Sequence record: PP129558
DNA: 64,000 nucleotides
Origin: Escherichia phage vB_EcoM_01
Direction: 5' to 3' (one strand)
The position numbers and the translations under genes are program-made. Of the stretch, positions 1-54,174 are shown in pieces. The stretch's first letter is position 1; every line of letters starts with the position of its first letter. The notes under the pieces are model-generated. The model saw nothing but the letters and a program-made list of their open reading frames with translations. It had not been told where the DNA came from and made no database searches.

Positions 1-187
1 GAAAGTGCATTCCTCGCAAAACACCGAAGTTTGATTTAGACATGTTATCTTGAACGAAAGTTTGTCTACCAATGATATCTTCGTATTTTTGTTCATTATA
101 TGTTTCTAAAAAGAAACCACGATCATCTTTATAAACATCTGGTTTGATAATTACCGCACCTTCAATTTTTGTTTTTTCTACTTTCAT
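1..187 (-). CDS. rmlC: dTDP-4-dehydrorhamnose 3,5-epimerase (RmlC), N-terminal 62 codons; gene runs off the window start
   Basis: Minus-strand translation from ATG at 187 gives [33 protein letters not shown]...[20 protein letters not shown], matching the RmlC N-terminal signature as recalled from memory (RGFF.ET, FVQDNxSKS, VLRGxHF). ATGA start/stop overlap with rmlA. Absent from the ORF track only because it is truncated by the window edge. Confidence 0.7.
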
Positions 188-1062
188 TTTCTCTCCGCTA
201 ATTTGAGTAGGTATTGCCCGTACTCTGTTTTCTTCAGTGAGTTTCCATGATATACCAAAGTCTCTAAAGAAATCCACCCTTTTTTGAAAGCAATTTCTTC
301 CAGGCACGCAATCTTCAATCCTTGACGGTTCTCAATAGTCTGCACGAATTGACCAGCTTCCATCAGACTGGCGTGTGTTCCTGTGTCAAGCCAAGTAAAT
401 CCTCGTCCGAGAACTTCCACTTGTAACTTCCTGTCTTCGAGGTAGCTGCGATTGATATCTGTGATCTCCAGTTCTCCACGCGCGGAAGGGGTTACTTCTA
501 ATGCACGTTGAACAACAGAGTTATCATAGAAATACAAACCTGTGACAGCATAATCTGATTTAGGATTTTCAGGTTTCTCTTCAATAGAAATAGCTTGACG
601 ATTACTCCCAAATTCAACCACACCAAATCGTTCAGGATCTTTCACCAAATACCCGAAGATACAAGCTCCGCCACAAACATCTACCATCTCACTGGCGTTA
701 ATCAGTAGTTTACCAAAGCTTTGTCCGAAGAATAGGTTGTCACCTAAAATAAGAGCAACAGAGTCTTCTCCGATAAAATCTTTACCGATGATGAAAGCGT
801 CCGCAAGACCTCGTGGCTCGGATTGGATTGCGTAAGTGAGTTTTATCCCAAACATAGACCCATCTCCGAGAAGATACTCAAAGTCTTCCTGATCGCCTGG
901 TGTGGTGATGATTAAGATATCCTTAATGTCAGCCAACATCAATACCGATAAAGGGTAGTAGATCATGGGTTTGTCATACACAGGGAGCAATTGCTTGCTC
1001 ACACTGCGTGTTACCGGATGAAGGCGGGTTCCACTTCCTCCCGCCAAAATAATACCTTTCAT
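184..1062 (-). CDS. rmlA: glucose-1-phosphate thymidylyltransferase (RmlA)
   Basis: 292 aa; N-terminal [18 protein letters not shown] nucleotidyltransferase motif, overall length and pattern typical of RmlA/RfbA. Confidence 0.9.
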
Positions 1063-1070
1063 AACCCTCC

Positions 1071-2063
1071 TTAAATCTTCTCACTCCACCATTGAGGGTT
1101 GTTTAAGTACCATTCAATCGTTGAGTAGAGATCTTGTTCAAATGTAGAGTTTGCACTCCAACCCAGTTCAGACTCTATTTTAGAAGGATTGATTTCATAA
1201 CGCAAGTCATGTCCTTTACGATCTTCAACAAAAGTTATCAAGTTGGAAGAAGGGTAGGTTCCTGCTTCTGGATGTACAGTATCCATGTAGTCACAAACCA
1301 TATAGATGATCTCCATATTGGTTTTGGGATTACGTGTTCCAACATTATACGTTTGACCTGGTTCTCCACCTGTTGCCACTTGAAGAATAGCTCGCGCATG
1401 ATCCTCAACAAAAAGCCAGTCTCGCACCTGATCGCCTTTACCATACACCGGAATCTCTTTATTCGTCAAGATACTTGTGATGATTTTTGGGATCAGCTTT
1501 TCTGGATGTTGATAAGGTCCAAAGTTATTGGAGCAGTTGGTTATCACAACAGGTAAACCGTAGGTACGGTACCAAGCTTTCACAAGATGGTCAGATGCTG
1601 CCTTAGACGCACTGTACGGGCTTGAAGGGGCATAAGCTGTCTCTTCGGTAAAGGGAACGCCAGAGTCTGCCATATCACCGTACACTTCGTCTGTGGAGAC
1701 GTGTACGAACATCTTCAGTTTATTTTTTGGGAGGAGCCTTGCAGCTTCCAATAAATTGTATGTACCAATAATATTGGAGTCGATGAAAACTCGTGGATTC
1801 TTGATAGAATTATCCACATGACTCTCTGCCGCTAAGTGAATGATGAAATCGGGATTGCACTCTACTACTAAACTTTTTACTTGGGCTTCGTTTGCCAAAT
1901 CTGTCATGCTTAGTTTAACGTGAGTGATATCGCCTACATTCTCAATATCTGCTGCATAGCTCATCTTATCAACGACAAAAACTTCGTTATTAGGATCTTG
2001 ACAAAGAGAGCGCACCACGGCACTCCCAATAAAACCAAGACCACCTGTTACCAGATAGCGCAT
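1071..2063 (-). CDS. rmlB: dTDP-glucose 4,6-dehydratase (RmlB)
   Basis: 330 aa; N-terminal GGLGFIGS Rossmann motif and YSASK catalytic YxxxK motif of short-chain dehydratases; AAGGAG RBS 6 nt upstream. Confidence 0.9.
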
Positions 2064-2695: not shown

Positions 2696-2904
2696 TATTC
2701 CTCCTTAATTATTTCAAACTTGGCAACACCATTTACAATAATATGACCACAAGACATAACTCCTAGCCAAGGATCGCCGTTTTTCTTCAGGCGTTTACCG
2801 AATACATCACAAAAACCATTCTTCATTTCAGAGGCTTCATAAGAAGCCCCTTTGTCAAAAACGTCTTTGAATGTGTCGATTATACCAACACATTTCAAAA
2901 TCAT
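2695..2904 (-). CDS. hypothetical protein
   Basis: 69 aa ORF; start overlaps the nrdB stop. Confidence 0.35.
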   Translation of the reverse strand: MILKCVGIIDTFKDVFDKGASYEASEMKNGFCDVFGKRLKKNGDPWLGVMSCGHIIVNGVAKFEIIKEE

Positions 2905-3989
2905 TCGAAGTCAAGCTCCTCATCATCAGAGAGATCTTTGTTAGCTGAATTCAATTTGTAGTTAGTTAACTGAATCTCTTGGGCTGCTGACTGAATCAAA
3001 TCAGGATTCAACCATTTTTCCATCCAAGCTAAAGGACTATGTTTAGGTGCTTTAAACTTGGCTTTCATTTTCAATCGACGATAAATAGGGGCAGCATTGA
3101 AATAAACCCACTGTTTAGACAATTCGGCGTTAAGACCTACAATAAAACGCCCTTCACTAAACAGGTAGTCACACCACTGTTCCTCTTGTTCAACAACAGT
3201 GTCGAGAATCAAAGTCAACTCTTCGATATTGTCTTCGTAAATTTTACGCCAAATTGGGTCATGCATCAATGCATCAATTACAGCATAATCCATCTTAACA
3301 TGCAAGATTTCATCTAGCATAATTTTCTGGATCAGTTTACAAGCCCCAACAAACAGTTGTTGTTCTGCCATAGCAAAAGTAGCAGAGAAGGAAGATATAA
3401 ACTGAATACCTTCTAATCCAATCAGGGCTACCATCCCTTTAAGAATCAGCAGTCGAAGTTCATCGTTAGCTTCAATCAATCCTAGAGCATACTTATGACC
3501 AGCTTCTTCCAACTGACCCATGATATCAGCAATGATACCCATACGATTGAAAATTTTATCATTAATCATAATCTGATTGATGACTTCGATTGGATCTGGA
3601 GTACATTGACGGATTATTTCAGAATACGTTAACGCATGGAGAACTTCCATTTCACTCTGCTTCATCATCATAGCACAGGCTTCATTGTTACTCAAGAATG
3701 GAGAGAACAAAGTGATGATTGATTTTGCAAGAGAATCATTTTCCCATTGGAACGATAAGTTTTTAATCATAACATCATAGTTGTTTTTAGAACAAGCTAC
3801 GAAATCTTTACGTGTCTGATCCAGATTGACTTCATTCTCATCCCAATCTTGTGCTTTTTGAAGTTTGTAGAGTTTGTGCATCTCTGGATAAGTTACGTTA
3901 ACAGAATCAAAGATCCCTAATTGTTCCCCTAAAAATACTGGATATTTTCCTGTTTTGTAAACTTCATTGTGTAAATTAATTGCTGCCAT
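2901..3989 (-). CDS. nrdB: ribonucleotide reductase class Ia beta subunit (NrdB)
   Basis: 362 aa; ferritin-like R2 pattern and acidic C-terminal tail (DLSDDEELDFE) typical of NrdB; lies next to nrdA once the N gap is discounted. Confidence 0.85.
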   Translation of the reverse strand: MAAINLHNEVYKTGKYPVFLGEQLGIFDSVNVTYPEMHKLYKLQKAQDWDENEVNLDQTRKDFVACSKNNYDVMIKNLSFQWENDSLAKSIITLFSPFLSNNEACAMMMKQSEMEVLHALTYSEIIRQCTPDPIEVINQIMINDKIFNRMGIIADIMGQLEEAGHKYALGLIEANDELRLLILKGMVALIGLEGIQFISSFSATFAMAEQQLFVGACKLIQKIMLDEILHVKMDYAVIDALMHDPIWRKIYEDNIEELTLILDTVVEQEEQWCDYLFSEGRFIVGLNAELSKQWVYFNAAPIYRRLKMKAKFKAPKHSPLAWMEKWLNPDLIQSAAQEIQLTNYKLNSANKDLSDDEELDFE

Positions 3990-5124
3990 TTAAAATTCTC
4001 CTCAATAAAAAGGGGCCGAAGCCCCTAGTTTCATCACATCTTGCAAGCTTCACAACCACCATCAGAATCTTCTTGTGCTAAAGAGTCTGCTGATTTTGTT
4101 CTACTATTAAGGTAATACAATGANNNNNNNNNNNNNNNNNNNNNNNNNNNNNNNNNNNNNNNNNNNNNNNNNNNNNNNNNNNNNNNNNNNNNNNNNNNNN
4201 NNNNNNNNNNNNNNNNNNNNNNNNNNNNNNNNNNNNNNNNNNNNNNNNNNNNNNNNNNNNNNNNNNNNNNNNNNNNNNNNNNNNNNNNNNNNNNNNNNNN
4301 NNNNNNNNNNNNNNNNNNNNNNNNNNNNNNNNNNNNNNNNNNNNNNNNNNNNNNNNNNNNNNNNNNNNNNNNNNNNNNNNNNNNNNNNNNNNNNNNNNNN
4401 NNNNNNNNNNNNNNNNNNNNNNNNNNNNNNNNNNNNNNNNNNNNNNNNNNNNNNNNNNNNNNNNNNNNNNNNNNNNNNNNNNNNNNNNNNNNNNNNNNNN
4501 NNNNNNNNNNNNNNNNNNNNNNNNNNNNNNNNNNNNNNNNNNNNNNNNNNNNNNNNNNNNNNNNNNNNNNNNNNNNNNNNNNNNNNNNNNNNNNNNNNNN
4601 NNNNNNNNNNNNNNNNNNNNNNNNNNNNNNNNNNNNNNNNNNNNNNNNNNNNNNNNNNNNNNNNNNNNNNNNNNNNNNNNNNNNNNNNNNNNNNNNNNNN
4701 NNNNNNNNNNNNNNNNNNNNNNNNNNNNNNNNNNNNNNNNNNNNNNNNNNNNNNNNNNNNNNNNNNNNNNNNNNNNNNNNNNNNNNNNNNNNNNNNNNNN
4801 NNNNNNNNNNNNNNNNNNNNNNNNNNNNNNNNNNNNNNNNNNNNNNNNNNNNNNNNNNNNNNNNNNNNNNNNNNNNNNNNNNNNNNNNNNNNNNNNNNNN
4901 NNNNNNNNNNNNNNNNNNNNNNNNNNNNNNNNNNNNNNNNNNNNNNNNNNNNNNNNNNNNNNNNNNNNNNNNNNNATTAATTGCTGCCATTTAAAATTCT
5001 CCTCAATAAAAAGGGGCCGAAGCCCCTAGTTTCATCACATCTTGCAAGCTTCACAACCACCATCAGAATCTTCTTGTGCTAAAGAGTCTGCTGATTTTGT
5101 TCTACTATTAAGGTAATACAATGA
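3973..5124. other. assembly gap: N run 4125-4975 flanked by identical ~150-bp sequence (3973-4124 = 4973-5124)
   Basis: Flanks are identical and each contains the nrdA stop, a terminator hairpin and the nrdB start; uncollapsed contig-end overlap. ORFs 4034..4990 and 4120..4980 are artefacts. Confidence 0.9.
5005..5027 (-). terminator. intrinsic terminator-like hairpin between nrdA and nrdB (duplicated at 4005-4027)
   Basis: Minus-strand RNA reads AGGGGCTTCGGCCCCT followed by TTTTTAT; GC stem with TTCG loop. Confidence 0.5.
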
Positions 5125-7275
5125 TTTGCCACCCAGTCTAGCAAAATTCAAAATAAACTGCATCTCAGCTTTCACGGATAAACGTCCACCTACCAATTTA
5201 GAATAATCTAGCCAAGAATCACAAGAAATTCCTTGGTCAGTAAACTTGGTAAAGATACCATACATTTCTGCAAGGTCTTTAGCCGGAGTATCCCAGGCAG
5301 ATTGGTAGAACATTTTCAGTTTTTCGTAGTCTGGAACAATAAATAATACACTACCTTTCTGACTTTGTTTATACATAATGGTATCACGAACAGGATACAG
5401 AGAGTTAGTAGTATTGCTTACCAAACTGCTGGACTCATTAGGTGCAATAGCAGCCAATACACTGTTACGGATACCACCTTGTTCAATGATTTCAGCACGT
5501 AAGCCTTCCCAGTCCATTTTAAGATCAAAATTACCGATACTATCTACTGTTTTAGCATAAGTGTCAATTGGTAGCCAACCTTGAGGCCATTTGGTCTTAT
5601 CGATCCATTCTGCATTACCTTTTTCCTTAGCCAGACGCAGAGAGGCTTTTGCCAACCAGAAGTAATGACGTTCTGCAAGTTCATGCATTAATTTTTTAGC
5701 ATAAGCATCTGAATAATTTACAAAATTACTTGCCAAGTAATGCGCTAAGTTTGTAATGCCTACACCAATAGATCTACGTGCTTTAGCAGTTATTTCGTTA
5801 TGTTTAAATGGATAATCCATTGTTTCAATAACGTTGTCAATTGTCAATACAGTGTAGTATGCAACATCTTCATATTCTTCAGGTAATACACGACCAGCAA
5901 CAATAGAAGATAAGAAGCATAAAGCCAATTCTTGATCTTCTGTATTCTCACCAGTAAAGAGATCCGGCATACTGTGGAAAGCTTTAGTTGGTAAGAAGAT
6001 CTCTTGACACAGGTTTGATTGATACACCGTATCCAGGAAAGGTGTATGGTTGTTAACGTTGTCAGCAAAGAACATGTAAATACGTCCTGTTTCTGCACGT
6101 TGAACAATAATCTCTGTCAGAAGATCACGAGCCTTAACAAATTTTTTCTTAATGCGACGACGGCTTACTTTGTCATAAACTGCATCAAACTCTTCTTCAC
6201 TTTTATACAAAGCTTCATAAAGTTCTGGAGCATCATCACAACTAACTAACATCCAATCTTCGTTTTTTGCTGCTCGACGCAAGAATGAACGGTTAACAAC
6301 AATAGAATAATCCAGTTTGTCTACTCGTTTATCTATAGGTGTTGTTGGATTCTTCAGTCGAATCAGATCGTCGAAGTCTGGTTCAAGTATGGTAAAGGTA
6401 ACTGTAGCACTACCTCCACGGCTTGCTTGCTTCGAAGCTCCAACACTATCTTCCATCCATTTCAGATATGGAAGAAGACCACCATGAATAATACGATTAT
6501 TCTTAACACCTTGACCTGTGGCACGAGTTTGAAGATTAACACCAATACCTGCGTTATTTAACGTATACTCATGAGCTAAGTAATTAGCAATGGCTAAAGA
6601 CTCTGCTGTATCGTCTGCGCGGAATAAACAACAAGACGCACTTCCTTTGATTGGAGTTCGTAGAGTTGTCAGATACGGCGATGGCAGATTAATCTTAAGA
6701 TCGCTAACATAAGTATAAAGTTTTTTAATATCTTCTATACGGCGTTCTTTTGGTTGGATCTCCATAACCTTCATTGCGATACCAATGAAAAGAAACTGTG
6801 GAGACTCATGCACAACATCGTTTACTGCATCTCGAATAAGATATTTATCTACCATCTGACGTAAAACAGAATAACCATAAGTTAGATTTTTATTATGCTT
6901 TACAATCTTACCGATTTCTTTGATCTCTTCATCAGTATAATCCATTTTAGCCCAATGTCCACGTTCTACCATATCATGATAAAAGGTATTCAGTGAAGGG
7001 ATACTGTGGTATCCCCCATGAGCCTGTTTGTAAATCATACCCAGAAGAAGTCTTCCTGCCATATCACTGTAAGCTTGTGTTTTCTTGTCAATACACGCTG
7101 CAATCATTGCTTTATGCAGATCACGTGTAGACACACCGTCATAACACCGCTTCACAGCTTCTAATTCAATTTCAGACCAGTTTAGTTTACCTGCTGCAAA
7201 TTCAGACCACTTGCGAAGTTTTTCTGGATTAAACTCCTCTGTCTTACCGTTAGATTTAGTTACAAAACGAATCAA
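5035..7275 (-). CDS. nrdA: ribonucleotide reductase class Ia alpha subunit (NrdA)
   Basis: 746 aa; N-terminal ATP-cone-like region and C-terminal Cys pair (CEACKM) typical of NrdA. Confidence 0.85.
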   Translation of the reverse strand: MIRFVTKSNGKTEEFNPEKLRKWSEFAAGKLNWSEIELEAVKRCYDGVSTRDLHKAMIAACIDKKTQAYSDMAGRLLLGMIYKQAHGGYHSIPSLNTFYHDMVERGHWAKMDYTDEEIKEIGKIVKHNKNLTYGYSVLRQMVDKYLIRDAVNDVVHESPQFLFIGIAMKVMEIQPKERRIEDIKKLYTYVSDLKINLPSPYLTTLRTPIKGSASCCLFRADDTAESLAIANYLAHEYTLNNAGIGVNLQTRATGQGVKNNRIIHGGLLPYLKWMEDSVGASKQASRGGSATVTFTILEPDFDDLIRLKNPTTPIDKRVDKLDYSIVVNRSFLRRAAKNEDWMLVSCDDAPELYEALYKSEEEFDAVYDKVSRRRIKKKFVKARDLLTEIIVQRAETGRIYMFFADNVNNHTPFLDTVYQSNLCQEIFLPTKAFHSMPDLFTGENTEDQELALCFLSSIVAGRVLPEEYEDVAYYTVLTIDNVIETMDYPFKHNEITAKARRSIGVGITNLAHYLASNFVNYSDAYAKKLMHELAERHYFWLAKASLRLAKEKGNAEWIDKTKWPQGWLPIDTYAKTVDSIGNFDLKMDWEGLRAEIIEQGGIRNSVLAAIAPNESSSLVSNTTNSLYPVRDTIMYKQSQKGSVLFIVPDYEKLKMFYQSAWDTPAKDLAEMYGIFTKFTDQGISCDSWLDYSKLVGGRLSVKAEMQFILNFARLGGKSLYYLNSRTKSADSLAQEDSDGGCEACKM

Positions 7276-8051: not shown

Positions 8052-9050
8052 TCACCATTTAGTATGATTTGTTAAAAGTTGACGATGTTGAATCCAGCCT
8101 TTGAAATTGCCAGACCAAAACTTACCATTACGATCTACATGGGTAATACCTGGTTCCCAAGAGTTAAAATCCCAAGGAGCATTGATAAACAAATCTTCAA
8201 AACAGTTCTCTCCATATTGTTCGCATGTTTCTTGCATTGGAGTCGCTTGATGTTCAAACGGAGAAGCATGAACCTTGCGCCCAGTCAGCAAACGACCATA
8301 GATATCTAAAGCTTTATCTTTAGTTGCATTTAAACGACGATAGCTAACCTGTGCACAACACGAAGCTGAAATAGCTTTGGCTTCTTCCAAAGTAAGCACA
8401 ACAACTTCTCCAGATTCATCTTGAACGTAGTATCCACCAAAAACAAAATGATCGTCACCTTCTGTGCCAATATTATCATAGAAATGGTCTACATAAGGTG
8501 TGTGCCATTGCCCTGGTTTCAGCACTTCTGGTGTAGATTCTTCATACTCTTTGTGCATCTCTTTAGCCAAAGCTTCGATAGTAGGATCGGCTTCTTTGTC
8601 ATCACGTAGCCACCAGAAATTTTCATATTCTGTTGCTGTCAGAACTGTTTTAATTCGTTGGAAAGGTTCCAGAAGACGGTTTGCAACTTGTTTGTGGTAC
8701 CCTGCCAAAGAGAATTCTTCTGCAAAACGTGCTGCACTAAGCGCGGCAAGATCCCACCACTCTTGAGCAGTATAACCTGCATCAATAAGAGCGTCATGAT
8801 CAACACCTTTATCCTGCATACCAGGTTGGTTAGCCCCAAAACGATAAGGACGAGCAGGTTGATTTCGCACCATTTCAATCAGTGTTTTAACAGGTATAGC
8901 ACGGCTAGAAGCAGCATTACGACTGAACAGGCGGTGAGTCATCAATTCTGAATGAATAATACGTGGATATTCTAGTTCAAAAGTTACAATCTCTTTTCCG
9001 TCTTCAGTGATGGAATGCGCAATAATACTAGCCGAAATCTGTTTTGTCAT
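8052..9050 (-). CDS. ThyX-like (flavin-dependent thymidylate synthase family) protein, divergent
   Basis: 332 aa; HRLFSRNAASSR resembles the ThyX RHRxxSxNxxSxR signature and HASPFEH resembles the ThyX HxSPFEH motif, but in non-canonical order and spacing, with a second weak HR motif (QHRQLLTNH) at the C-terminus. Confidence 0.45.
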   Translation of the reverse strand: MTKQISASIIAHSITEDGKEIVTFELEYPRIIHSELMTHRLFSRNAASSRAIPVKTLIEMVRNQPARPYRFGANQPGMQDKGVDHDALIDAGYTAQEWWDLAALSAARFAEEFSLAGYHKQVANRLLEPFQRIKTVLTATEYENFWWLRDDKEADPTIEALAKEMHKEYEESTPEVLKPGQWHTPYVDHFYDNIGTEGDDHFVFGGYYVQDESGEVVVLTLEEAKAISASCCAQVSYRRLNATKDKALDIYGRLLTGRKVHASPFEHQATPMQETCEQYGENCFEDLFINAPWDFNSWEPGITHVDRNGKFWSGNFKGWIQHRQLLTNHTKW

Positions 9051-9059
9051 TTTTTCTCC

Positions 9060-9668
9060 TTAGTTTTTAAAATTGTTCAAAGTGTTAAAAACATCCAAAC
9101 ATGTTAGCCACTGATCTTCTAAACCTGTGATCACAACATTTGGTTTTTTCTTTAGTTCTTCTAGATGGTTATCTTTATAAGGCGTATTAAAATATATTTT
9201 AACCACTTCATCTGGAAAATATAGTAGGTTATCAGCCCTGTCATCTATTGCTATATCACAAGGCAATAAATATTTTTCTTTCGTAGCAAAAAAGCCGTTG
9301 CCAGATCCTTTGCTAAAATCAATCGTATCTAATGTTCTTAAAACATGCTTATGTTTAGAACTTAAGTGACCACCTTTTGTCACACTTGCGATCAAAAGAT
9401 TGCTACCTTTTCTTGAAACATACTTTAAGAAATCTGGCATACCTGTAACAAAACCCATTGTATCATAGAGATGAGGATTATCCAGAAATCCGTAAGGATC
9501 TATGTTGAACTCTTCCCTGAAACCAGGAAAATAGTTGGTAAGATCGTAATCTGCATTTTTTGTGAATGTGTCGATTTTAACACCAAGTCCACTAATCTTA
9601 TTCAACCATTCTAACCAAGCAACATCTAATGGAGCCACAACTAAATCCCAATCACATACTATCTGCAT
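9060..9668 (-). CDS. HAD-superfamily phosphatase, possible 5-prime deoxynucleotidase
   Basis: 202 aa; N-terminal DxD motif (VCDWDLV) and a late hhhhDD motif (IAIDDRADN) typical of HAD hydrolases. Confidence 0.4.
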   Translation of the reverse strand: MQIVCDWDLVVAPLDVAWLEWLNKISGLGVKIDTFTKNADYDLTNYFPGFREEFNIDPYGFLDNPHLYDTMGFVTGMPDFLKYVSRKGSNLLIASVTKGGHLSSKHKHVLRTLDTIDFSKGSGNGFFATKEKYLLPCDIAIDDRADNLLYFPDEVVKIYFNTPYKDNHLEELKKKPNVVITGLEDQWLTCLDVFNTLNNFKN

Positions 9669-9704: not shown

Positions 9705-10280
9705 CTAACTTTCAATTTCCTGCAATAGGATTTTGACTATTTGTTTACGGCGTTTAGCTACTGTGCTTTCAGGTTCTATTTTACGCTTCTTCAACCAAGC
9801 TTTATCTTTCTTAGCTCTACACAAAGCTATCGCTTCTTTTTCAGCTTTTGCTTCTTCAAAAGATATGCCTTGCTTGTCTGCATAAGCAAGAATAGAGTTG
9901 CACAATTTACAAACCATGCGCAAATCTTCTTCTTTCACATAGATTAAACGGAAAACAAAAAGAGGAATATCATCAAAACATTGAAGTTGTTTTGCTGCGT
10001 GAATATGATCCACTTGGAAGTCTTTCATTCCTCCTCTATGTCCACATATTTCGCACTCACAATTCCAAACTTGTTTTGGTTTTCCAGTTTTCTTGTCTAT
10101 CATCACATTGCCGTCTTTATCTACGCGATCAACTTTAAAACGCCTTGCATTGATAACCTTAATTTTATTAGGGTGTCTCATCCATGCTTTTCTAAAACAT
10201 CCTCTAAGATAAGTATAAAATTCCGCTTGTGTTTTCCAGGGTGTTCCTTCACCCCACATTATTTTTGGTTCACCTGCCAA
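9705..10280 (-). CDS. HNH endonuclease
   Basis: 191 aa; CECEICGH...QVDHIHA...CKLCN matches a CxxC-HH-N-CxxC HNH zinc-finger nuclease layout. Confidence 0.55.
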   Translation of the reverse strand: MAGEPKIMWGEGTPWKTQAEFYTYLRGCFRKAWMRHPNKIKVINARRFKVDRVDKDGNVMIDKKTGKPKQVWNCECEICGHRGGMKDFQVDHIHAAKQLQCFDDIPLFVFRLIYVKEEDLRMVCKLCNSILAYADKQGISFEEAKAEKEAIALCRAKKDKAWLKKRKIEPESTVAKRRKQIVKILLQEIES

Positions 10281-21351: not shown

Positions 21352-22003
21352 TTCTTTTTGCTCCTCTTTTTAGATTTCTCATACAAACCTAACACAGCCG
21401 CTTCTTTTGCACAAGTAGGAACTGAAGTCATTCCTCTTCTTTTTGCTTCTGGCAGTTGCAAAGTCCATATTCNGTCTCTTATNNNNNNNNNNNNNNNNNN
21501 NNNNNNNNNNNNNNNNNNNNNNNNNNNNNNNNNNNNNNNNNNNNNNNNNNNNNNNNNNNNNNNNNNNNNNNNNNNNNNNNNNNNNNNNNNNNNNNNNNNN
21601 NNNNNNNNNNNNNNNNNNNNNNNNNNNNNNNNNNNNNNNNNNNNNNNNNNNNNNNNNNNNNNNNNNNNNNNNNNNNNNNNNNNNNNNNNNNNNNNNNNNN
21701 NNNNNNNNNNNNNNNNNNNNNNNNNNNNNNNNNNNNNNNNNNNNNNNNNNNNNNNNNNNNNNNNNNNNNNNNNNNNNNNNNNNNNNNNNNNNNNNNNNNN
21801 NNNNNNNNNNNNNNNNNNNNNNNNNNNNNNNNNNNNNNNNNNNNAGAGACAGCTTTTACACACTTCAGGAAAGTCTTGATCATTTCTTTTTGCTCCTCTT
21901 TTTAGATTTCTCATACAAACCTAACACAGCCGCTTCTTTTGCACAAGTAGGAACTGAAGTCATTCCTCTTCTTTTTGCTTCTGGCAGTTGCAAAGTCCAT
22001 ATT
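21331..22003. other. assembly gap: N run 21481-21844 flanked by ~140-bp duplicated sequence
   Basis: Flanks near 21331-21473 and 21861-22003 are identical, with ambiguous bases beside the Ns; ORFs made of X codons are artefacts. Confidence 0.9.
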
Positions 22004-51336: not shown

Positions 51337-54174
51337 ATGTCAACTACAATTACTAATTTACCCGAAACATCAAAAGTTAATGATTCTGATTACCTGGTTT
51401 TAGACCAACCTGATAAGACTGTTAAAAGCACAGTTTCCAACTTTCTTACTGACACTGGGGTGGTTTTAGCCACCCAGTTGAAAGNNNNANNNGGGNCTGA
51501 GTTAATAGGACACAGAAACGCTACGGTTGGTGCCACTCTGGATTCAATTGCAGTCCGCTCAGATCAATTTTCTACTATTCAGGAATGGGCATCATACCCG
51601 GCAAAGAATAAAATTTTAGCGGAGGGTACTTATACTCTTGACTCAACTCNTNNNNGTGTTGAATGTGAATCACTAACCACTGAGGGTGTAGTTANNNNNN
51701 NNNNNNNNNNNNNNNNNNNNNNNNNNNNNNNNNNNNNNNNNNNNNNNNNNNNNNNNNNNNNNNNNNNNNNNNNNNNNNNNNNNNNNNNNNNNNNNNNNNN
51801 NNNNNNNNNNNNNNNNNNNNNNNNNNNNNNNNNNNNNNNNNNNNNNNNNNNNNNNNNNNNNNNNNNNNNNNNNNNNNNNNNNNNNNNNNNNNNNNNNNNN
51901 NNNNNNNNNNNNNNNNNNNNNNNNNNNNNNNNNNNNNNNNNNNNNNNNNNNNNNNNNNNNNNNNNNNNNNNNNNNNNNNNNNNNNNNNNNNNNNNNNNNN
52001 NNNNNNNNNNNNNNNNNNNNNNNNNNNNNNNNNNNNNNNNNNNNNNNNNNNNNNNNNNNNNNNNNNNNNNNNNNNNNNNNNNNNNNNNNNNNNNNNNNNN
52101 NNNNNNNNNNNNNNNNNNNNNNNNNNNNNNNNNNNNNNNNNNNNNNNNNNNNNNNNNNNNNNNNNNNNNNNNNNNNNNNNNNNNNNNNNNNNNNNNNNNN
52201 NNNNNNNNNNNNNNNNNNNNNNNNNNNNNNNNNNNNNNNNNNNNNNNNNNNNNNNNNNNNNNNNNNNNNNNNNNNNNNNNNNNNNNNNNNNNNNNNNNNN
52301 NNNNNNNNNNNNNNNNNNNNNNNNNNNNNNNNNNNNNNNNNNNNNNNNNNNNNNNNNNNNNNNNNNNNNNNNNNNNNNNNNNNNNNNNNNNNNNNNNNNN
52401 NNNNNNNNNNNNNNNNNNNNNNNNNNNNNNNNNNNNNNNNNNNNNNNNNNNNNNNNNNNNNNNNNNNNNNNNNNNNNNNNNNNNNNNNNNNNNNNNNNNN
52501 NNNNNNNNNNNNNNNNNNNNNNNNNNNNNNNNNNNNNNNNNNNNNNNNNNNNNNNNNNNNNNNNNNNNNNNNNNNNNNNNNNNNNNNNNNNNNNNNNNNN
52601 NNNNNNNNNNNNNNNNNNNNNNNNNNNNNNNNNNNNNNNNNNNNNNNNNNNNNNNNNNNNNNNNNNNNNNNNNNNNNNNNNNNNNNNNNNNNNNNNNNNN
52701 NNNNNNNNNNNNNNNNNNNNNNNNNNNNNNNNNNNNNNNNNNNNNNNNNNNNNNNNNNNNNNNNNNNNNNNNNNNNNNNNNNNNNNNNNNNNNNNNNNNN
52801 NNNNNNNNNNNNNNNNNNNNNNNNNNNNNNNNNNNNNNNNNNNNNNNNNNNNNNNNNNNNNNNNNNNNNNNNNNNNNNNNNNNNNNNNNNNNNNNNNNNN
52901 NNNNNNNNNNNNNNNNNNNNNNNNNNNNNNNNNNNNNNNNNNNNNNNNNNNNNNNNNNNNNNNNNNNNNNNNNNNNNNNNNNNNNNNNNNNNNNNNNNNN
53001 NNNNNNNNNNNNNNNNNNNNNNNNNNNNNNNNNNNNNNNNNNNNNNNNNNNNNNNNNNNNNNNNNNNNNNNNNNNNNNNNNNNNNNNNNNNNNNNNNNNN
53101 NNNNNNNNNNNNNNNNNNNNNNNNNNNNNNNNNNNNNNNNNNNNNNNNNNNNNNNNNNNNNNNNNNNNNNNNNNNNNNNNNNNNNNNNNNNNNNNNNNNN
53201 NNNNNNNNNNNNNNNNNNNNNNNNNNNNNNNNNNNNNNNNNNNNNNNNNNNNNNNNNNNNNNNNNNNNNNNNNNNNNNNNNNNNNNNNNNNNNNNNNNNN
53301 NNNNNNNNNNNNNNNNNNNNNNNNNNNNNNNNNNNNNNNNNNNNNNNNNNNNNNNNNNNNNNNNNNNNNNNNNNNNNNNNNNNNNNNNNNNNNNNNNNNN
53401 NNNNNNNNNNNNNNNNNNNNNNNNNNNNNNNNNNNNNNNNNNNNNNNNNNNNNNNNNNNNNNNNNNNNNNNNNNNNNNNNNNNNNNNNNNNNNNNNNNNN
53501 NNNNNNNNNNNNNNNNNNNNNNNNNNNNNNNNNNNNNNNNNNNNNNNNNNNNNNNNNNNNNNNNNNNNNNNNNNNNNNNNNNNNNNNNNNNNNNNNNNNN
53601 NNNNNNNNNNNNNNNNNNNNNNNNNNNNNNNNNNNNNNNNNNNNNNNNNNNNNNNNNNNNNNNNNNNNNNNNNNNNNNNNNNNNNNNNNNNNNNNNNNNN
53701 NNNNNNNNNNNNNNNNNNNNNNNNNNNNNNNNNNNNNNNNNNNNNNNNNNNNNNNNNNNNNNNNNNNNNNNNNNNNNNNNNNNNNNNNNNNNNNNNNNNN
53801 NNNNNNNNNNNNNNNNNNNNNNNNNNNNNNNNNNNNNNNNNNNNNNNNNNNNNNNNNNNNNNNNNNNNNNNNNNNNNNNNNNNNNNNNNNNNNNNNNNNN
53901 NNNNNNNNNNNNNNNNNNNNNNNNNNNNNNNNNNNNNNNNNNNNNNNNNNNNNNNNNNNNNNNNNNNNNNNNNNNNNNNNNNNNNNNNNNNNNNNNNNNN
54001 NNGGTTATCTATGATAAGGAGACGCAAAGGGCGTATTCCCTACCTGCTGATATTGCCCCAGGTACTACTGCCATTAGTCTTAGTGCTGCTGTACTTGTGC
54101 ATTCGGCGGGTTCTGTAGACCTTGGGGAATTAGCTGTATCTTGTGATTTAAAAAGTAATGAGAACACACTATGA
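51337..54174 (+). CDS. tail fibre protein interrupted by an assembly gap
   Basis: N-terminus MSTTITNLPETSKVNDSDYLVLD is fibre-like; the interior is an N run, so length and frame continuity are unknown. Confidence 0.35.
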   Translation: MSTTITNLPETSKVNDSDYLVLDQPDKTVKSTVSNFLTDTGVVLATQLKXXXGXELIGHRNATVGATLDSIAVRSDQFSTIQEWASYPAKNKILAEGTYTLDSTXXXVECESLTTEGVVXXXXXXXXXXXXXXXXXXXXXXXXXXXXXXXXXXXXXXXXXXXXXXXXXXXXXXXXXXXXXXXXXXXXXXXXXXXXXXXXXXXXXXXXXXXXXXXXXXXXXXXXXXXXXXXXXXXXXXXXXXXXXXXXXXXXXXXXXXXXXXXXXXXXXXXXXXXXXXXXXXXXXXXXXXXXXXXXXXXXXXXXXXXXXXXXXXXXXXXXXXXXXXXXXXXXXXXXXXXXXXXXXXXXXXXXXXXXXXXXXXXXXXXXXXXXXXXXXXXXXXXXXXXXXXXXXXXXXXXXXXXXXXXXXXXXXXXXXXXXXXXXXXXXXXXXXXXXXXXXXXXXXXXXXXXXXXXXXXXXXXXXXXXXXXXXXXXXXXXXXXXXXXXXXXXXXXXXXXXXXXXXXXXXXXXXXXXXXXXXXXXXXXXXXXXXXXXXXXXXXXXXXXXXXXXXXXXXXXXXXXXXXXXXXXXXXXXXXXXXXXXXXXXXXXXXXXXXXXXXXXXXXXXXXXXXXXXXXXXXXXXXXXXXXXXXXXXXXXXXXXXXXXXXXXXXXXXXXXXXXXXXXXXXXXXXXXXXXXXXXXXXXXXXXXXXXXXXXXXXXXXXXXXXXXXXXXXXXXXXXXXXXXXXXXXXXXXXXXXXXXXXXXXXXXXXXXXXXXXXXXXXXXXXXXXXXXXXXXXXXXXXXXXXXXXXXXXXXXXXXXXXXXXXXXXXXXXXXXXXXXXXXXXXXXXXXXXXXXXXXXXXXXXXXXXXXXXXXXXXXXXXXXXXXXXXXXXXXXXXXXXXXXXXXXVIYDKETQRAYSLPADIAPGTTAISLSAAVLVHSAGSVDLGELAVSCDLKSNENTL
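51485..54002. other. assembly gap: scattered ambiguous bases (51485-51655) and N run 51695-54002
   Basis: Runs of n in the sequence; the ORFs across it on both strands are artefacts. Confidence 0.95.

Follow-up and report, generated by a model that had tools for sequence, protein, structure and literature searches.

A ThyX-like protein of Escherichia phage vB_EcoM_01 carries the ThyX signature motifs in swapped order

The DNA of Escherichia phage vB_EcoM_01 analyzed here (64,000 nucleotides of record PP129558, hereafter the window) encodes, at 8052..9050 on the minus strand, a relative of the flavin-dependent thymidylate synthase ThyX in which the signature motifs stand in swapped order. The REARRANGEMENT of ThyX motifs in the 8052..9050 protein is supported by three independent tests, and the reversed motif order is far beyond chance. 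The best-fitting description is translocation of one internal element (alpha1-alpha2-His53), with both original chain ends otherwise kept. The protein of 332 amino acids probably carries out flavin-dependent synthesis of dTMP from dUMP.

Results

Order of the ThyX motifs

The gene is an intact open reading frame (ORF) with an ATG start. PHROG 85, 'thymidylate synthase', matched its product with an E-value of 2e-109. The window matches Phapecoctavirus-type Escherichia phages with genomes of about 150 kb, and the protein was 100% identical to the KKP 3954 orthologue and 99% identical to that of vB_EcoM_ESCO37 (both Phapecoctavirus), the latter being annotated as 'putative thymidylate synthase'. 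The features of the gene are listed below, where Tm denotes the reference, T. maritima ThyX (TM0449), whose sequence was checked against PDB 1KQ4.

8052..9050, minus strand: whole ThyX-like gene, 332 amino acids plus the stop codon at 8052..8054 (ORF list).
8994..9050, minus strand: residues 1-19, retained N-terminal beta-strand (6-14) and tight turn; strands 6-14 and 20-29 form a hairpin in the AlphaFold2 (AF2) model.
8526..8993, minus strand: residues 20-175, collinear ThyX core equivalent to Tm 60-201 (hhalign).
8901..8939, minus strand: residues 38-50, THRLFSRNAASSR, ThyX signature with its first Arg replaced by Thr (translation, residue map).
8373..8525, minus strand: residues 176-226, family-specific linker with a W-H183-x-P185-Y/F loop and a beta-meander at 188-219 (AF2).
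8241..8372, minus strand: residues 227-270, displaced segment equivalent to Tm 21-62, with alpha1, alpha2 and the His53 loop (hhalign).
8250..8270, minus strand: residues 261-267, HASPFEH, equivalent to Tm H53-E-T-P-F-E58-H59 (translation).
8055..8240, minus strand: residues 271-332, family-specific C-terminal tail without a match to canonical ThyX.
8079..8114, minus strand: residues 313-324, SGNFKGWIQHRQ, tail motif GNFxGWxQxR including H322-R323 (translation).

The relative position of the two motifs was determined with regular expressions. Of 270 family sequences, 237 had FEH after the RHR-like motif, at a median of +218 residues, and none had it before; in the other 33, one of the two motifs had no match. 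In canonical ThyX, FEH lay exactly 25 residues before the RHR motif in all 120 sequences, in agreement with the distance of about 25 given in an earlier note on this DNA. The phage protein does not follow the collinear order of N-terminal strand, alpha1-alpha2-HxxPFEH, beta3, RHR and helical core. The earlier note had placed an HR..S.N..S.R motif near residue 40, and translation located it at residues 38-50, where T38-H39-R40-L-F-S43-R-N45-A-A-S48-S-R50 fits the pattern and A51 follows at the position of Tm Tyr91. HASPFEH, placed near residue 250 in the same note, was present but lay slightly further along, at 261-267.

The Pfam model Thy1 (PF02511) gave a partial match, in which residues 22-175 aligned with positions 59-191 of the 191-position profile at 35.0 bits, above the gathering cutoff of 24.8 bits. 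Residues 215-268 were then placed between residues 19 and 20 in silico, and the re-ordered protein was scored with the Pfam and NCBIfam models. The Thy1 score increased to 47.6 bits, compared with 35.0 before, and the match now spanned positions 14-191; the NCBIfam thyX model TIGR02170 rose from 31.6 to 44.5 bits with coverage of 16-205. A control with the segment reversed scored 30.9 bits (Thy1) and 24.4 bits (TIGR02170) and gained no coverage. The C-terminal fragments 176-332 and 215-275 alone had no Pfam or NCBIfam match; the displaced segment was detectable only in the re-ordered context or by hhalign.

For profile-profile comparison, a family alignment of 89 sequences, 38-53% identical to the query, was compared by hhalign with 120 canonical ThyX sequences. 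Residues 20-176 matched Tm 60-201 (score 49.6, P 1.9e-6), and residues 227-270 matched Tm 21-62 in the swapped order (score 47.0, P 4.8e-6). When the alignment columns were re-ordered, the two matches fused into one collinear match to Tm 20-199 (score 85, E 1.7e-12). The displaced segment alone scored 46.4, compared with 11.6 +/- 2.3 (maximum 19.9) for 100 column shuffles and 15.7 for the reversed segment; an alignment of 247 sequences raised its score to 52.7 (E 6.7e-9). This profile alignment excluded the collinear ThyX with chance motifs that the earlier note had named as a refutation of its reading. The swapped matches, the shuffle null and the motif order of the 237 sequences bear out that note in reading the product as a ThyX relative with rearranged signature motifs.

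The AF2 monomer model had a predicted local distance difference test (pLDDT) value of 80 and a predicted TM-score of 0.81, and structure comparison of the model placed it in the ThyX alpha/beta fold. Along the chain, the model shows strand 6-14, a tight turn, strand 20-29 (Tm beta3), the THR...S.R loop and the helical core with an insertion. These are followed by the W-H-x-P-Y loop, the meander (188-219), helices 221-236 and 244-255 (Tm alpha1 and alpha2), HASPFEH and a tail of short strands. The insertion, at about residues 64-94, is specific to the phage family and bears the invariant G77-M78. The meander consists of strands 188-193, 202-210 and 216-219 (pLDDT 83-92), and the linker 176-226 as a whole had no counterpart in canonical ThyX by hhalign.

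Conservation of active-site residues

Residue equivalences were taken from the hhalign map, and conservation was counted in the 89 family sequences.

Tm H79, here H39: 89/89
Tm N85, here N45: 85/89
Tm S88, here S48: 88/89
Tm R90, here R50: 89/89
Tm R147, here R125: 89/89
Tm N169, here N144: 89/89
Tm R174, here R149: 89/89
Tm S30, here S236: 89/89
Tm H53, here H261: 89/89
Tm E58, here E266: 84/89
Tm H59, here H267: 88/89

The set that binds and activates dUMP (Tm S88, R90, R147 and R174) was conserved. In the set contacting flavin and folate, H261, H39, N45 and N144 were conserved, and the equivalents of R78 and Y91 were replaced. When RHRxxSxNxxSxR(Y) is laid over THRLFSRNAASSR-A, the H, S, N, S and R are kept, with Thr in place of the first Arg and Ala in place of the trailing Tyr. 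Within HASPFEH, S263 was also conserved (87/89), beside H261 (89/89), E266 (84/89) and H267 (88/89). In canonical ThyX, R174 activates dUMP, and S88, R90 and Y91 help water leave the flavin carbinolamine (PMC8316439). H53, which another monomer contributes and which Y91 and N85 hold, stacks on flavin or folate, and R78 faces N1/C2=O of FADH- (PMC11940539).

The phage family has invariant residues of its own, namely G77-M78, K120, H183, P185 (H183 and P185 each 89/89) and R323. Of these, R323, H183 and K120 are candidates for residues that may compensate for the loss of R78 and Y91.

Predicted function

As a ThyX-family flavoenzyme, the protein would convert dUMP to dTMP using FAD, NAD(P)H and methylene-tetrahydrofolate, and the dTMP would feed replication of the AT-rich (about 38% GC) phage genome. 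The chain would keep the ThyX core fold in a different wiring, in which a His element of 40 residues (Tm about 20-59, two helices and HxxPFEH) has moved. Its canonical site between the N-terminal strand and beta3 would now be the tight hairpin at residues 15-19. The element would now come about 200 residues further along, behind the core and a new beta-meander linker and ahead of a new C-terminal tail. Such a relocation is plausibly tolerated, because H53 acts in trans and the active site is built mainly by other subunits of the tetramer.

The data show the homology to ThyX and the swapped order, together with the pattern of conservation and the genomic context. The residues contacting dUMP and flavin are invariant, apart from the R78 and Y91 equivalents, which supports a function on dUMP. 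The neighboring genes for dNTP synthesis support it as well, as does the position of the gene as the only thymidylate synthase candidate in the phage. In a roseophage, the orthologue is under purifying selection, with a dN/dS of 0.18 (PMC11934525). We infer the enzymatic activity of the phage protein and its oligomeric arrangement.

Several points weigh against this assignment. With TIGR02170, a thyX equivalog model, the score of 31.6 bits was far under the cutoff of 87.9 bits, and the sequence re-ordered in silico still reached only 44.5 bits. A sequence search of the PDB, made with the single protein and with a profile of 38 close relatives, gave no ThyX match; the relationship was visible only by Pfam, profile-profile or structure comparison. 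The displaced helices (231-260) were modeled at low confidence (pLDDT 55-59), and their 3-D placement relative to the core is putative. The host already has ThyA, and the literature searched contained neither biochemical nor genetic tests of family members. Tm R78 is replaced by Thr (T38) in 85 of the 89 family sequences, and Tm Y91 by Ala (A51) in all 89. These two residues are described as 'strictly conserved' or functionally important in canonical ThyX (PMC11940539, PMC8316439), and in T. maritima ThyX the Y91A substitution makes the consumption of the carbinolamine over 100-fold slower (PMC8316439).

With R78 and Y91 replaced family-wide, the mechanism may be altered. The protein could be a flavoenzyme of the ThyX fold whose chemistry or substrate has changed, in which case the rearrangement and the missing R78 and Y91 would mark a different reaction; UMP (as for PolB) or dCMP as the substrate, a hydroxymethyl product, or another reductant or one-carbon donor are examples. 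R78 and Y91, changed to Thr and Ala throughout the family, are positions tied to FADH- stabilization and carbinolamine water loss (PMC11940539, PMC8316439). The new invariant residues G77-M78, K120, H183-P185 and R323 and the score far under the thyX equivalog cutoff point in the same direction. However, the residues that bind and activate the uracil nucleotide (the S88, R90, R147 and R174 equivalents) are invariant, the gene is the only thymidylate synthase candidate of the phage, and its context in several lineages is dUMP supply (dCTP or dCMP deaminase) and dNMP kinase or ribonucleotide reductase (RNR). Carriers such as N4, rV5 and ICP1 are not known to contain modified thymine or cytosine, which we also count against altered chemistry. 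We regard this alternative as unlikely. The earlier note had suggested from the neighbors a substrate other than dUMP; the neighbors are of the dNTP-synthesis type and the dUMP residues are invariant, which speaks against that suggestion.

A stronger form of the proposal is a mechanistically distinct class of flavin-dependent enzymes modifying pyrimidine nucleotides at C5, which would use another catalytic solution and subunit arrangement or make a product other than dTMP. Its basis is the loss of Arg78, which stabilizes flavin N1, and of Tyr91, the proposed general acid, together with the gain of R323, H183, K120 and G77-M78. We consider such a class unlikely.

Nature of the rearrangement

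Placing residues 226-268 after residue 19 gave an end-to-end alignment with Tm 1-200 that contained only small indels, as expected of the translocation of a single element. A strict circular permutation, which the earlier note had named as one possibility, fits poorly because the N-terminal strand (6-14) is still present, hairpinned onto the beta3 equivalent; the cyclic order also scored lower. Inclusion of residues 1-19 in global hhalign gave 85.6, compared with 79.4 +/- 2.8 for shuffled columns, a weak gain. These residues are probably the equivalent of the canonical N-terminal strand, Tm 1-19, and S13 among them was conserved in 88 of the 89 sequences.

The tail (268-332) and the meander (176-226) were compared with the N-terminal part of the protein itself and with canonical ThyX, and neither showed a trace of duplication above shuffled nulls, which does not sustain the tandem or partial duplication also raised in the earlier note. 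Derivation of the tail from a degenerate copy of beta3-alpha3-RHR was rejected after comparison with canonical ThyX, with the N-terminal part of the protein and with short-tailed relatives as master, all at the null level. The meander likewise found no support from hhalign as the original N-terminal strands. The length of the tail varies across the family; only its terminal motif is universal and is kept in the shortest members. In the model, tail residues 291-320 had pLDDT values of 91-92. R323 was conserved in 89, Q321 in 86 and N315 in 84 of the 89 sequences. H322 was not conserved (Y in 42, H in 25). The weak second HR that the earlier note had seen at the C-terminus thus holds for its invariant Arg; the His is variable, and homology to RHR was not detectable. 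The shortest relatives, P0246 among them, have their tail motif at FEH-x18-R, the same spacing as FEH-x18-R78 in canonical ThyX, where R78 is the arginine missing from the N-terminal motif of the phage family. Because of this spacing, a degenerate RHR in the tail is kept, as an idea only.

A classical circular permutant could also have arisen by tandem duplication and trimming, in which case the meander would represent the original N-terminal strands, and the C-terminal HR would be left over from the RHR motif of the second copy. The cyclic re-ordering (176-332 followed by 1-175) does yield a single alignment to Tm 21-199, the short members share the canonical spacing to the arginine, and R323 is invariant where the R78 equivalent of the N-terminal motif is gone. 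However, the cyclic order scored 66.7 and the transposition order 85, and the retained N-terminal strand hairpins directly onto the beta3 equivalent. Including the meander in global hhalign brought no gain (79.4 against a null of 79.6), whereas residues 1-19 did. The duplication nulls given above count against this origin too, and the tail is predicted as short strands (AF2), where canonical ThyX has a helix. Such an origin appears distinctly unlikely, and translocation of the His53 element remains the description that fits best.

Inteins in relatives

Among 150 listed cluster representatives of the family, 17 (about 11%) were 520-680 amino acids long, with matches split at motifs (P0128, P0135, P0143, P0149, P0152, P0168, P0187, P0205, P0209, P0215, P0216, P0218, P0227, P0231, P0250, P0254 and P0255). 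Pfam scans of seven of these revealed intein and homing-endonuclease domains (Intein_splicing, HNH, LAGLIDADG) in most. Five intein sites were found, all within conserved motifs. Three of them follow H33, R40 and the residue two past R149 (His in intein-bearing relatives, D151 here), a fourth separates S48 from S49, and the fifth, in the displaced motif, separates H261 from the next Ser (in relatives including P0152, P0168 and P0250). Insertion of inteins within both motifs provides independent support that both are functional. The family is an intein hot spot comparable to RNR.

The protein could instead be a catalytically dead ThyX derivative with a binding or regulatory role, for example sequestration of dUMP or folate, or control of host nucleotide enzymes. 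The loss of R78 and Y91 and the supply of ThyA by the host would fit such a role. We consider it very improbable, since the rest of the catalytic set is near-perfectly conserved across sequences 38-55% identical, inteins target the motifs, and the gene is consistently found among dNTP-synthesis enzymes.

Genomic context

The ThyX-like gene is flanked on one side by genes for an NT5C-like nucleotidase and an HNH endonuclease. On its other side are those for RNR alpha/beta, with glutaredoxin and nucleotide-sugar enzymes further away. Immediately upstream, across a gap of 9 nt, an NT5C-like HAD 5'-deoxynucleotidase of 202 amino acids is encoded at 9060-9668 (minus strand). It scored 23.7 bits against a Pfam cutoff of 24.8, has an N-terminal D-x-D motif and belongs to PHROG 420, 'unknown function'. 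A dNMP phosphatase adjoining a dTMP synthase is counter-intuitive. Two genes upstream, at 9705-10280 (minus strand), a free-standing HNH endonuclease (PHROG 1985, E 8.5e-66) is encoded, and HNH genes also occur near the orthologue in N4-like phages.

Inside the dNTP-metabolism cluster, a nucleotide-sugar epimerase-like gene (PHROG 540) and its neighbor occupy 184-2063 (minus strand). Their counterparts in ESCO37 are labeled dTDP-4-dehydrorhamnose 3,5-epimerase and reductase, and these genes could serve host surface or DNA sugar chemistry. The window contains N runs at 4124-4975 (852 bases), 21483-21844 (362) and 51695-54002 (2308), plus a few single Ns. The first of these falls between nrdB (2901..3989) and nrdA (5035..7275), which are separated by 1045 nt here and by 44 nt in ESCO37. 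The phage thus carries an insertion of about 1 kb, its sequence masked, between the two genes, possibly a homing endonuclease or other mobile element.

In other phages, the orthologue neighbors dCTP deaminase (N4-like PBM-3), dCMP deaminase and a MazG-like enzyme (roseophage DSS3phi2), dNMP kinase and RNR (phiCbK-like Magneto) or RNR (ICP1). The neighbors in Stenotrophomonas phage Moby were mostly hypothetical and uninformative. The related 149-kb genome OM386659.1 has one annotated thymidylate synthase. A tblastn search of this genome for ThyA, canonical ThyX, dihydrofolate reductase (DHFR), dCMP deaminase and dUTPase, made with hand-typed probe sequences, gave nothing better than E = 0.03. 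The lack of a detected DHFR fits an enzyme of the ThyX type, because ThyX yields tetrahydrofolate. With no DHFR, dUTPase or dCMP deaminase detected in OM386659.1, the dUMP for its thymidylate synthase must come from the host. OM386659.1 also encodes class Ia and class III RNR and glutaredoxin, and its annotations include putative orotate phosphoribosyltransferase, PRPP synthetase and GTP cyclohydrolase II.

Distribution and database records

The ThyX-like family matched 1034 phage records, 993 of them covering at least 80% of the query. Carriers include rV5-like, ICP1, PAK_P1/KPP10-like, N4-like, phiCbK-like, Flavobacterium and other phages. Among cluster representatives at 50% identity, at least 5000 matched, mostly 300-345 amino acids long, 1634 of them with E <= 1e-30. 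A viral structure library labels family members as thymidylate synthase. Among 185,579 species represented by one genome each, two exact peptide patterns, a search of low sensitivity, found only 10 loci, all on contigs of metagenome-assembled genomes (MAGs). These matches (L010-L019; labeled Sinomicrobium, Pedobacter, Bermanella, Chloroflexi and others) lie on contigs of 7-128 kb and are likely phage contigs binned into bacterial MAGs.

Two records show the gene broken: vB_EcoM-ECP26, with pieces of 245 and 97 amino acids (A0A4Y5TVX3 and A0A4Y5TVY4), and KKP 3954 (OR067838.1), with a two-piece match. The idea of a gene naturally split into two polypeptides, which came from these records, was rejected, as rV5-like JohannBauhin and typing phage 5 have a single intact coding sequence (CDS) of 327 amino acids; the apparent second feature in the phage-record matches is an adjacent gene with a one-base overlap. 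The breaks in OR067838.1 and ECP26 are probably frameshift errors in the deposited sequences. The same two records are all that would favor coincidental motifs in an ordinary collinear ThyX, or unrelated pieces joined through an error of assembly or a frameshift, and this explanation is refuted by the full-length architecture shared by more than 1000 phage records, the thousands of matching cluster representatives of similar length, the intact CDS of well-sequenced rV5-like phages, the uniform motif order and the strong homology statistics.

Discussion

The gene has simply been called thyX or thymidylate synthase in earlier work, as for the N4 gp30-like protein (PMC2784036), rV5 gp106 (PMC3606486) and roseophage thyX (PMC11934525). 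The main ThyX phylogeny filtered sequences on RHRX7S (PMC2826268). A Pseudomonas phage ThyX (PMC9348578) proved to be an ordinary ThyX of 225 amino acids and was set aside as not relevant. A search for permuted or rearranged ThyX returned papers on genome permutation only; it left out most subscription journals, and an earlier description is possible. Within the literature searched, mostly outside subscription journals, no description of the rearranged layout or of the R78 and Y91 replacement was found.

Humans lack ThyX, which is a drug target, and its unusual flavin-carbinolamine mechanism, including the roles of Tyr91 and Arg78, is debated. A very large natural family, with more than 1000 sequenced phages and thousands of metagenomic clusters, keeps the ThyX core with a rewired chain and without R78 and Y91; among its carriers are N4, ICP1 and rV5, all model phages, and several groups of therapeutic phages. 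If active, these proteins would serve as a natural experiment that tells which parts of its active site ThyX cannot do without. They would also clearly exemplify protein evolution in which a segment acting in trans is translocated. Annotation pipelines name them 'thymidylate synthase' from a partial domain match, and RHRX7S motif filters or equivalog models miss them or handle them inconsistently.

Comparison with known systems

Canonical ThyX (PF02511, TIGR02170; TM0449, PDB 1O26/1KQ4) is a homotetramer with bound FAD and active sites shared between subunits. The phage protein shares with it the core fold, the S-x-R loop, the R147, N169 and R174 equivalents, the HxxPFEH element with its preceding helices, and the genomic role among dNTP-synthesis genes. 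It differs in carrying the His53 segment after the core and in being about 110 residues longer (insertion at about 64-94, meander and tail). The phage family also differs in having Thr for R78 and Ala for Y91 and in scoring far under the equivalog cutoff. ThyX A674R of the chlorovirus PBCV-1 (PDB 2CFA/4FZB) is collinear, about 216 amino acids long, and 12-18% identical over the aligned part. PolB, the UMP/dUMP C5-methylase of polyoxin biosynthesis in Streptomyces cacaoi (PDB 4P5A), is likewise collinear and lies in a biosynthetic cluster, not a phage dNTP module; in comparison with the phage protein, no shared derived features specific to PolB were identified. In other enzyme families, for example in groups of permuted DNA methyltransferases, the catalytic motifs also stand in other linear orders on the same fold. 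These are usually described as circular permutations, whereas in the ThyX-like phage protein a single internal segment appears to have been translocated.

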